DNA of 64,000 nucleotides from Escherichia coli (lineage in GTDB: Bacteria; Pseudomonadota; Gammaproteobacteria; Enterobacterales; Enterobacteriaceae), in the NCBI RefSeq assembly GCF_009931435.1, contig NZ_CP043414.1, one strand, 5' to 3'. The first letter of the stretch is position 1; each line of letters opens with the position of its first letter. The position numbers are program-made. Positions 45,001 to 48,000 of the stretch are shown piece after piece.

Positions 45001-48000
45001 TCGCGCGGCAGGTGGTCAGTTAAGCGAGAAAAAGATTGTCTTCCTCGGCGCAGGTTCAGCGGGATGCGGCATTGCCGAAATGATCATTGCCCAGACTCAG
45101 CGTGAAGGATTAAGCGAGGAAACGGCGCGGCAGAAAGTCTTTATGGTCGATCGCTTTGGTCTGCTCACCGACAAGATGCCGAATCTGCTGCCTTTCCAGA
45201 CTAAACTGGTGCAGAAGCGCGAAAATCTCAGTGACTGGGATACTGACAGCGATGTGCTGTCACTGCTTGATGTGGTGCGCAATGTCAAACCGGATATTCT
45301 GATTGGCGTCTCAGGACAGACCGGGCTGTTTACGGAAGAGATCATCCGTGAGATGCACAAACACTGTCCGCGTCCGATCGTGATGCCGCTGTCTAACCCG
45401 ACTTCACGTGTGGAAGCCACACCGCAGGACATTATCGCCTGGACCGAAGGTAACGCGCTGGTCGCCACCGGCAGTCCGTTTAATCCGGTGGTATGGAAAG
45501 ATAAAATCTACCCCATCGCCCAGTGTAACAACGCCTTCATTTTCCCTGGCATCGGGCTGGGTGTTATTGCTTCCGGCGCGTCACGTATCACCGATGAGAT
45601 GCTGATGTCGGCAAGTGAAACGCTTGCTCAATATTCGCCGCTGGTCCTGAACGGCGAAGGTCTGGTACTGCCGGAACTGAAAGATATTCAGAAAGTCTCC
45701 CGCGCAATTGCGTTTGCGGTTGGCAAAATGGCGCAGCAGCAAGGCGTGGCGGTGAAAACCTCCGCCGAAGCTCTGCAACAGGCCATTGATGATAACTTCT
45801 GGCAAGCCGAATACCGCGACTACCGCCGTACATCCATCTAAGCCTGCGCCCGGTAGTGACTGCTACCGGGCAATTTTCCTCTTCCTTTTTCAGATCTCAT
45901 CCATACTGGGTAGTGGCGAATAAATCTCATTTGCCTCACCTGCTATGCAGAACATCATCCGAAAAGGAGGAACTATGAAGGCTGCAGTTGTTACGAAGGA
46001 TCATCATGTTGACGTTACAGATAAAACACTGCGCTCACTGAAACATGGCGAAGCCCTGCTGAAAATGGAGTGTTGTGGTGTGTGTCATACCGATCTTCAT
46101 GTGAAGAATGGCGATTTTGGTGACAAAACCGGCGTAATTCTGGGACACGAAGGTATTGGTGTGGTGGCAGAAGTTGGCCCCGGCGTTACCTCATTAAAAC
46201 CAGGCGATCGCGCCAGCGTGGCGTGGTTTTACGAAGGTTGCGGTCATTGCGAATACTGTAACAGTGGTAACGAAACGCTCTGCCGTTCAGTTAAAAATGC
46301 CGGATACAGCGTTGATGGCGGCATGGCGGAAGAGTGCATCGTGGTCGCCGATTACGCGGTTAAAGTGCCCGATGGCCTGGACTCCGCGGCGGCCAGCAGC
46401 ATTACCTGCGCGGGTGTCACCACCTACAAAGCAGTAAAACTGTCAAAAATTCGTCCAGGACAGTGGATTGCTATCTACGGTCTTGGCGGTCTGGGCAACC
46501 TCGCCCTGCAATACGCGAAAAATGTCTTTAATGCAAAAGTGATCGCCATTGATGTCAATGATGAGCAGTTGAAACTGGCAACCGAAATGGGTGCAGATTT
46601 AGCGATTAACTCACGCACCGAAGACGCCGCCAAAATTGTGCAGGAGAAAACCGGTGGCGCTCACGCAGCGGTGGTGACAGCGGTAGCTAAAGCTGCGTTT
46701 AACTCAGCGGTCGATGCCGTTCGTGCAGGCGGTCGTGTTGTGGCTGTCGGTCTGCCGCCGGAGTCTATGAGCCTGGACATCCCACGGCTGGTGCTGGATG
46801 GTATTGAAGTGGTCGGTTCGCTGGTCGGCACGCGCCAGGATCTCACCGAAGCCTTCCAGTTTGCCGCCGAAGGTAAAGTGGTGCCAAAAGTTGCCCTGCG
46901 TCCGTTAGCGGACATCAACACCATCTTTACTGAGATGGAAGAAGGCAAAATCCGTGGCCGTATGGTGATTGATTTCCGTCGCTAAGAGGCCTTTGCTGCG
47001 ACTGCCATGTTTGAGTCGCAGCCTGTTTTGCGAGACGCTTTCCGCAATTTCACTCTTCTTCTTTTCCTCCCCCATCTTTCCTCTCACAATTCACGAAAAC
47101 GTAGCGAAATTTGTTGCGCTGCACGGAACAACAGTGATAGTGTTCCTTTCGAAGGAACAAGGATGAAGAGATGATAATGAATTTCAGACACAAGGGATTG
47201 CGTGACTTGTTTCTTCTCGGCAAAACCTCCGGCGTTATACCGACGCAAATCAAACGATTACGCCACCGACTCGCTGTGATTGATGCAGCAAGCTGTCTTG
47301 CTGATCTCGATATGCCCGGTTACCGACTACACCCGTTAAGCGGCGATCGTGATGGAATTTGGGCGATATCTGTCTCGGGCAACTGGCGAATCACATTTGA
47401 ATTCGTCAATGGCGATGCATACATACTGGATTACGAGGACTATCACTGATGAAAATGGCCAATCATCCCCGCCCGGGGGACATTATTCAGGAATCACTGG
47501 ACGAACTTAATGTCAGCCTGCGCGAGTTTGCCAGAGCAATGGAAATTGCGCCCTCAACGGCAAGCCGATTGCTGACCGGAAAAGCCGCGTTGACGCCAGA
47601 AATGGCGATTAAACTTTCCGTGGTGATCGGCAGTTCGCCGCAAATGTGGCTGAATCTACAAAACGCCTGGAGTCTGGCAGAGGCAGAAAAAACGGTAGAT
47701 GTGTCGCGATTACGCCGTCTGGTTACGCAATAAAAAAATGGCACCTTATAAAGCGCCATTTGAAACTGATGGCAAACGCAACATTGCCTGATGCGCTACG
47801 CTTATCTGACCTACACGTTCACTGCAATCTATTGGATTTGAACGGTTTGTAGGCCGGATAAGGCGTTCACGCCGCATCCGGCATGAATAAAGCCTACGTT
47901 GTCTACAATATGAAAATGGCGCCTTTTACAGCGCCATTTTCAGCTTAAAGTTCAAAAGAGATTATATCCCTTCTTCACTCTCTTTTTTCGCTTCTGCCTT

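Follow-up and report, generated by a model that had tools for sequence, protein, structure and literature searches.

BIME-1, also named RIP or RIB, is a bacterial interspersed mosaic element in which a Z1 and a Y repetitive extragenic palindromic (REP) sequence are joined by a long L linker with an IHF site, and which occurs as single copies (PMC3333891). Its length is ~140 bp, and it is present in some strains and absent in others (PMC1187871). [quoted passage not shown] Here we analyse the BIME-1 located between the convergent genes yddM and fdnI in a 64,000-nt stretch of Escherichia coli DNA (contig NZ_CP043414.1), called the window below and numbered from its first letter. Two closely related hairpins bracket this element, and the whole is very probably an old BIME-1 insertion with a target duplication of the size of a hairpin.

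Several described systems resemble this arrangement in part. The closest precedent is IS1630 of Mycoplasma fermentans, an insertion sequence (IS) of the IS30 family with the same kind of structure-sized target duplication, whose repeats reportedly derive from the rho-independent terminators of neighbouring genes. IS1630 is an autonomous element of 1.2-1.4 kb with a DDE transposase and a mollicute host, whereas BIME-1 encodes nothing and its host is a gamma-proteobacterium. The 'insertion with long target duplication' of Furuta and Kobayashi, concerning restriction-modification genes, also displays unusually long direct repeats and a single-copy empty allele, but those repeats (30-400 bp) are not described as hairpins, and what is inserted there is a gene cassette instead of a member of a dispersed repeat family whose ends are defined. 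REPINs, which depend on RAYT enzymes of the IS200/IS605-like Y1 HUH type, have in common with BIME-1 the inverted REP doublet, the long hairpin, the lack of autonomy and the polymorphism between strains. Movement of the REPIN/IS200/IS605 type leaves no target duplication and involves no terminal inverted repeats (TIRs), while BIME-1 here shows both and its unit extends past the REPs. Bidirectional intrinsic terminators between convergent genes share form and position with the ancestral single hairpin of this locus and with the second hairpin of the window; the window however holds two diverged copies 178 bp apart, with the A-tract and the T-tract divided between them.

With the BIME-1 of the literature the insert shares the Z1 and inverted Y REPs, the L linker with an IHF-like core sequence and a unit that measures ~145-153 bp here. 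In the reviews and later papers compared here it is a single-copy element and flanking repeats go unmentioned, whereas a duplicated terminator brackets it at this locus and K-12 has two hairpin-spaced tandem units. Already known are REP and BIME sequences themselves, the fact that strains differ in whether they carry BIME-1, and bidirectional terminators. No duplicated flanking hairpin is mentioned in the reviews and later BIME papers; the primary papers of the 1990s (Gilson 1991, Boccard and Prentki 1993, Bachellier 1997) lay outside this comparison and may hold a prior description.

The genes yddM (HigA-family antitoxin; 47449-47733, + strand) and fdnI (formate dehydrogenase-N gamma subunit; 47962-48615, - strand), taken from the open reading frame (ORF) list and the RefSeq annotation of a near-identical locus, face each other across a gap of 228 bp, with stop codons at 47731-47733 (+) and 47962-47964 (-). 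A first, sequence-only reading had placed in this convergent gap two REPs in opposite orientation between two related hairpins. All four elements were found where it put them, and their REP/BIME identity was borne out, more specifically as one unit of BIME-1. The insert (~47761-47913, ~153 bp) begins with the left terminal motif TGAAACTGATGGCAAACGCAACAT (47761-47784, + strand), which includes the left TIR arm and was defined by the alignment of 20 BIME-1 loci and the TIR test. It is followed by a Z1-type REP, or palindromic unit, TGCCTGATGCGCTACGCTTATCTGACCTAC (47785-47814, +), assigned with the type definitions of PMC3333891; its 3' arm is degenerate and its core reads ATCTGACC instead of ATCAGGCC. 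Then come the L linker (47815-47848, +) with its core CTGCAATCTATTGGATTTG, placed by the BIME-1 alignment and the description of the linker and its IHF site in PMC3333891, and the inverted Y-type REP GTAGGCCGGATAAGGCGTTCACGCCGCATCCGGCA (47849-47883, -), with an intact GTAG, recognised by its sequence and a sub-threshold Rfam match to naRNA4. The right terminal motif TGAATAAAGCCTACGTTGTCTACAATATGA (47884-47913, +), with the right TIR arm, closes the unit and rests on the same alignment and TIR test. The linker is identical at 17/19 positions to the family core carrying the IHF site, both changes falling in what appears to be the IHF-like core. Judged by these sequence features, the insert between the hairpins is a complete BIME-1, with a Z1 REP, an L linker, a Y REP and the conserved end motifs. 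Rfam searches of the region returned only sub-threshold matches to REP-derived families (naRNA4 at the Y REP, ES036/CssrF at the L linker); matches to mir-1251 and IMPDH were dismissed as chance.

The ends of the element were defined on the family. A metagenome scan for the L-linker plus Y-REP pattern gave 120 stretches representing 33 distinct BIME-1 loci, 20 of which were aligned. The Z1 and Y REPs of the window align with those of the 19 other copies, and the alignment delimits a well-bounded element of ~153 bp with the structure TGAGACTGATGACAAACGCAAAAT - Z1 REP - L - Y REP - TGAACAAAGCGCACTTTGTCAACAATCTGA, the outermost sequences being the left and right consensus ends of the family. The conserved unit measures ~145-153 bp and includes motifs of 24 nt on the left and 30 nt on the right beyond the REPs. 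These ends form a TIR of ~16 bp, TGAGACTGATGACAAA versus TCAGATTGTTGACAAA, with 13/16 identities over the full ends by our own count and 12/14 in the local alignment, and the alignment score is reached by 0.04% of shuffles. The two BIME-1 ends were also compared with the verified sequence of the left inverted repeat of IS30, and the similarity was not significant, being equalled by a fraction of 0.15 and 0.38 of shuffles. Membership of BIME-1 in the IS1630/IS30 family was ruled out, given ends unlike the IS30 inverted repeat and no ORF within the 153 bp of the window copy.

Both hairpins directly abut the ends of this unit. Hairpin 1 (47735-47761; 47734-47761 in the feature list; no strand assigned), located by direct-repeat comparison, folding and a terminator scan, reads AAAATGGCACCTTATAAAGCGCCATTT and pairs at 8/9 stem positions, with one A.C mismatch on the + strand. 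Hairpin 2 (47913-47940; no strand assigned), located by direct-repeat comparison, folding and its position in outgroups, reads AAAATGGCGCCTTTTACAGCGCCATTTT and has a perfect stem of 10-12 bp. The two are identical at 24/27 positions and belong to a 34-nt direct repeat (47728-47761 versus 47906-47939; 85% identity, spacing 178 bp), so that the kinship proposed between them was confirmed. The pattern AAATGGCGC-N8-GCGCCATTT, with at most two mismatches, occurs at just two places in the 64-kb window where shuffles expect 0.00; the resemblance is not due to chance. The 5' edge of the 34-nt repeat is formed by the end codons and stop of yddM (CAATAA). We revised this repeat as the exact extent of the duplication: at other loci BIME-1 has CAAT(A/C)TGA as its conserved right end, hence it is largely by coincidence that the yddM stop region also contains CAATA, and the target that was duplicated measures ~25-27 bp. 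What the sequence-only reading missed is the main point, namely that the hairpins would be duplicates of one ancestral terminator, made at the insertion of BIME-1.

The state of the locus before insertion can be approached through its alleles. We searched the locus in 5,426 complete E. coli genomes and established its forms on a spread sample of 39 chromosomes. One BIME-1 unit, as in the window, was present in 15/39; another 14 had no BIME-1 and a 50-bp gap with a single perfect hairpin AAAAATGGCGCTTCTTAAAGCGCCATTTT, and three showed this single-hairpin form plus an adjoining IS200C. Six (K-12 and DH5alpha among them) contained two tandem 178-bp units with three hairpins, and in the remaining one, E. 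coli B, a 34-bp deletion takes out all of hairpin 2. A separate count agrees, finding the two ends of BIME-1 in 3,032/5,426 genomes, while ~44% are without BIME-1; the BIME-free alleles that were read (L002, L003) are single-hairpin, and so, judging from their span and identity classes, are probably the others of this ~44%. The sequence-only reading had looked to a genome-wide search for the hairpin motif as a measure of its generality. The motif proved confined to this locus, with a median of 1 and a maximum of 4 places per genome over the 5,426 genomes, and a dispersed genome-wide motif was rejected, since among the matches listed all those with an E-value <=0.003 lie at this locus.

Outgroups settle the direction of change, from one hairpin to two. 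The yddM-fdnI arrangement is retained in Pluralibacter, in Enterobacter and in at least eight species of Citrobacter, where one hairpin of the form AAAAAATGGCGC-loop-GCGCCATTTT adjoins the fdnI stop; its inner stem varies by genus yet stays complementary (TAC/GTA, C/G or TT/AA). Where outgroups have an extra gene between yddM and fdnI, the hairpin remains with fdnI. Hairpin 2 is the positional homologue of this fdnI-adjacent hairpin, kept in Escherichia, Citrobacter, Pluralibacter and Enterobacter; thus, the single hairpin is the old fdnGHI terminator, which in E. coli is common to yddM. The ancestral-type form consists of A7, a GC-rich stem and T4. We propose that BIME-1 entered this one bidirectional intrinsic terminator, originally common to yddM and fdnGHI, and that the two hairpins would be the target-site duplication, the duplicated segment of ~25-27 bp comprising AAA, stem-loop-stem and TT. 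TIRs, flanking direct repeats and single-copy empty sites together constitute the footprint of an insertion with target duplication. E. albertii already possesses the two-hairpin form, so the insertion is old.

A simpler view would assign one terminator to each gene, the likeness of the hairpins resulting from shared constraint or chance and the REPs having settled between them. Each hairpin does adjoin the stop codon of one gene, and hairpin 2 is credible on both strands. This view nevertheless has to accommodate the 24/27 identity inside a direct repeat reaching 34 nt, the single hairpin of the BIME-free alleles read and of every outgroup genus keeping an fdnI-side terminator hairpin (in L027, REPs are found instead), the weakness of hairpin 1 in the yddM direction and, as shown below, the paired-hairpin layout around BIME-1 at many unrelated loci; the single-hairpin alleles already contradict it, and we give it almost no credence. 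Alternatively, the filled two-hairpin state could be the older one within Escherichia, and the single-hairpin alleles secondary products of recombination or slippage ('excision'). E. albertii and divergent E. coli lineages are filled, direct repeats of 27-34 bp do drive rearrangement here (K-12 two-unit allele), and the 1997 Bachellier paper is said to mention 'excisions of a whole BIME-1'; the PCR result of that paper is summarised in PMC1187871. In the outgroups Citrobacter, Pluralibacter and Enterobacter the hairpin is single, however, and the empty-allele hairpin (loop TTCTTAAA) carries two private substitutions, present in neither flanking copy nor in their inferred ancestor, and is therefore not a simple or recent recombinant of hairpins 1 and 2; Escherichia sp. 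MOD1-EC7003 has the same hairpin. Even with some secondary empty alleles, the first duplication would still need explaining. An older filled state is distinctly improbable in our estimation.

The same signature was found at other BIME-1 loci. At ~14/33 independent loci, direct copies of a locus-specific, terminator-like hairpin of 17-37 bp abut both sides of the element; this figure takes the 11 loci passing the test described next with yddM-fdnI itself and the partial cases c02, c19 and c25. In local alignments of left flank versus right flank, 11/31 loci scored above the 99th percentile of cross-locus pairings, where 0.3 would be expected. This flank-alignment test was used in place of a fixed-offset count of stable hairpins at the element ends, set aside because its imprecise right-end anchor cut known hairpins. 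The flanking repeats measure 17-37 nt, nearly all fold, and the hairpin is different at each locus. Their position is mostly constant: 22-26 nt separate the end of the left copy from Z1, and the right copy starts 42-50 nt past the Y-REP anchor.

Unoccupied alleles with exactly one hairpin each were identified in E. coli genomes at four further loci, yajD-tsx, metE-ysgA, uspB-pitA and artJ-rlmC. The uspB-pitA site, for example, reads CATAAAAAAAGCGGGCCAGTAAACTGACCCGCTCGTTTTGG when empty; when filled, the left flank finishes with AAAAAAAGCGGGCCAGTAAACTGACCCGCTCG, the element runs from AGACTGATTAC to CACAATCTGA, and the right flank resumes with AGCGGGCCAGCTGACCCGCTCGTTTTGG. All five resolved loci lie between convergent genes. 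The duplicated segment there consists of stem-loop-stem plus 0-3 flanking A/T, is roughly symmetric about the dyad, and measures about 25-27, 25, 19, 26-27 and 17-18 bp. A fixed short target-duplication length was not seen among the loci: the range is 17-37 bp and tracks the size of the local hairpin. Unusually, the duplication matches the local palindrome in length.

Copies of the duplicated hairpin also decay singly: the left hairpin has been lost in K-12 at yajD-tsx, the right one in E. coli B at yddM-fdnI, and one artJ-rlmC allele (L176) has the right hairpin only. Comparing left with right copies across loci, we observed no consistent trend of decay in + strand energies. The BIME-1 of the L176 allele (strain STN0717-20, 135-340) is only ~86% identical to the common one at the same artJ-rlmC site, and this third allele represents a second, independent insertion at that terminator or else a divergent allele of great age. 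Locus c20 (L095) is an atypical BIME with two tandem L-linker units and Y-like REPs on both sides, and its high flank-similarity score stems from this tandem structure, not from a duplicated hairpin. The left flank of the window insert, GAAACTGATGGCAAACGCAA, is found as well at yhaC-rnpB and ybiT-ybiV. At yhaC-rnpB (strain 00-3076, L006 301-810), the tandem repeats downstream of rnpB each hold a terminator-like hairpin AAAAACCCGCCGAAGCGGGTTTTT, and BIME-1 lies between two such copies. The rnpB repeat unit contains GAAACTGACCGATAAGCCGC, resembling the left end of BIME-1 GAAACTGATGGCAAACGC; by this likeness, the rnpB repeats and BIME-1 may be related.

How could an insertion duplicate a whole hairpin? 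Under our proposal the palindrome would be extruded as a hairpin or cruciform and the target cut on either side of it, at the foot of that structure, where the two cut points would be spatial neighbours though 17-37 bp apart in sequence; gap repair would then copy the whole palindrome. Such behaviour has been reported for IS1630. We infer this cut-at-hairpin-foot step with gap repair tentatively, and would rate it a little short of an even chance. As a pattern, the duplication of terminator palindromes by inserting BIME-1 has good support; the mechanism is a proposal.

Several points weigh against an insertion with hairpin duplication. TnpA_REP, the sole enzyme with a known link to BIMEs, has single-stranded DNA as its substrate, and neither TIRs nor target repeats are produced by its relatives of the IS200/IS605 group (PMC3333891). 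The insertion event itself is unobserved and all copies are old: the hairpins of the window differ at 3/27 positions and E. albertii is already two-hairpin. Duplication is found at only ~40% of BIME-1 loci, the others having a one-sided hairpin or none, which requires later decay or a different insertion mode. The left junctions at c04, c17 and c25 are truncated or shifted, which agrees with copy-choice or later deletion no less than with a clean staggered cut. Hairpin 2, with a T-run of just 4 T, was not called by the terminator scan (threshold, 5 T in 8), and the terminator roles of both hairpins are predictions from sequence.

The main rival keeps the same origin of the hairpins and dispenses with a transposase cut: they would arise by template-switching (copy-choice) or by break repair at a stalled fork or SbcCD-cut palindrome, with BIME-1 copied in as filler and the palindrome replicated a second time. 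Palindromes are sites of stalling and slippage. The variable repeat length of 17-37 bp would suit such a process, as would the 1-3 nt of ambiguity or microhomology at the junctions (T/TGA on the left, TGA/A on the right) and the irregular left junctions of c04, c17 (37-nt repeat) and c25. Even at these three loci the repeats are always at the element ends, despite different offsets. Identical element ends at most loci together with TIRs are predicted by end recognition by a transposase and unexpected for a filler, and at the five resolved loci the rough symmetry of the duplicated segment about the dyad also speaks against copy-choice. We regard this rival as rather doubtful, while taking it seriously.

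A further route would retain the enzyme already associated with these sequences: RAYT (TnpA_REP) would have carried BIME-1, in the form of a REPIN-like unit of single-stranded DNA, into the template of the lagging strand by the folded terminator, the hairpin being doubled at a later fork restart. TnpA_REP binds GTAG REPs and cuts single-stranded DNA at C^T (^ marking the cut), even hundreds of nt away (PMC3333891). A C^TGA(T/A) motif, found at either end of BIME-1, is similar to the type I site of this enzyme; the match is short and the lead weak. Against such a route, an IS200/IS605-type mechanism leaves no target repeats and needs no TIRs, and the conserved unit runs 24-30 nt past the REPs. 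We consider it improbable.

Returning to insertion with hairpin duplication, BIME-1 looks like a MITE that duplicates the whole terminator palindrome when it inserts. Taken as a general statement, BIME-1 would be, or would have been, a MITE-like element of ~153 bp with 16-bp TIRs that targets the palindromes of intrinsic terminators and duplicates the entire hairpin of 17-37 bp; we put this forward as a possibility, less probable than not. Solitary REPs were seen in Citrobacter between yddM and the fdnI terminator (L013, L015 and L017; bases 2786-2890), the hairpin not being duplicated, which points to the duplication as a trait of BIME-1 rather than of REPs at large. In L027, a REP pair stands in place of the fdnI terminator.

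We then consider what the two hairpins may do as terminators. For hairpin 2, folding energies of -18.7 (+ strand) and -20.8 kcal/mol (- strand) are predicted, with z ~ -5.4, and there is a U4 tail in each direction, UUUUCAUAUUG on the - strand; the symmetry for both directions attributed to it was supported by these predictions. Hairpin 1 is significantly stable in the - orientation only, with -13.9 kcal/mol (z -3.6), a G.U pair and a U7 tail, and in no other orientation did the terminator scan call it; for the + strand its energy is just -8.2 kcal/mol (z -1.25) and UUUG comes after the stem. Hairpin 1 retains the ancestral A-tract (A7) and only TT(T) on its 3' side, while hairpin 2 retains the T-run. 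With A7 staying on the left copy, hairpin 1 should be a good terminator for - strand RNA only. In whole-region folds both hairpins form locally and BIME-1 forms a long Z1:Y stem. The supplements of the SMRT-Cappable-seq study (PMC6131387) contain no entry for fdnI or yddM.

From these fold energies and tails, with the A-tract and T-tract split between the copies, the notion of one terminator each for yddM and fdnGHI does not hold well: with its A.C mismatch, -8.2 kcal/mol and UUUG on the yddM strand, hairpin 1 is predicted to be a poor terminator for yddM, and hairpin 2 probably serves both genes. The yddM mRNA would probably pass the weak hairpin 1, include BIME-1 in its 3' untranslated region (UTR) and end at hairpin 2. 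Transcripts of fdnGHI would reach hairpin 2 first, hairpin 1 with its U7 tail acting as a backstop. In E. coli B (L004, 585-778), BIME-1 directly follows fdnI, and the first terminator-like hairpin on the fdnI strand is hairpin 1.

The direct repeats of 27-34 bp make the locus unstable: 0, 1 and 2 units coexist in E. coli, and deletions of a single hairpin occur. The two-unit allele of K-12 (L001, 585-990) is an exception to the single-copy rule for BIME-1. Its middle hairpin associates the body of hairpin 2 with the junction of hairpin 1, which by sequence would be the product expected of unequal exchange between the two direct repeats. The Y REPs of this K-12 allele have lost GTAG (TTTTCATGCCGG), while the window copy keeps GTAG and has a degenerate Z1 arm; judging from these changes, both look like immobile relics.

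The yddM-fdnI gap is a recurrent insertion site across several genera. A coding-length, - strand insert lies between yddM and the fdnI terminator in several Citrobacter (~0.7 kb; L016, L018-L020, L022 and L024; 2786-3560) and in MOD1-EC7003 (~0.5 kb; L011, 2786-3290). In NMBU-W10C18 (L003, 585-1290), the single-hairpin allele holds a copy of IS200C that separates its A-tract from the stop of yddM (~47734 of the window); the same terminator has thus attracted a second, unrelated hairpin-associated element, without hairpin duplication. Around this gap, the gene order is adhP, a HigB-like toxin ORF and yddM (+), followed by fdnI (-). The toxin ORF (RelE/ParE, HigB-like, 92 aa; 47171-47449, +) is intact, its stop overlaps the yddM start, and the annotation of the near-identical strain R32_14_1F lists it as a toxin. 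K-12, B, 504211 and NMBU-W10C18 lack this ORF, and adhP ends there ~146 bp before yddM; yddM is accordingly an orphan antitoxin in most E. coli, and the window keeps the full pair.

The recurrent hairpin-sized duplication and the single-hairpin empty allele provide a concrete insertion footprint, with a testable target, terminator palindromes, and a testable product. The flanking repeats permit deletion and tandem gain, which accounts for the polymorphism of BIME-1 between strains (0, 1 and 2 units here). For annotation, paired 'terminators' around BIME-1 should be read as duplicates and not as independent signals. A prediction follows, that proximal terminators are weakened and that BIME-1 is acquired in the 3' UTRs of both mRNAs. 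If the general reading of BIME-1 as a MITE-like element is true, target cleavage would be directed by DNA structure, and mobilisation would be unlike the single-stranded 'peel-and-paste' by RAYT assumed for REP doublets. Each insertion would split a compact bidirectional terminator into two half-crippled copies with BIME-1 in both 3' UTRs, and the direct repeats so created would drive presence/absence and copy-number polymorphism. This would be a general property, so far unreported, of one of the oldest known bacterial repeat families.

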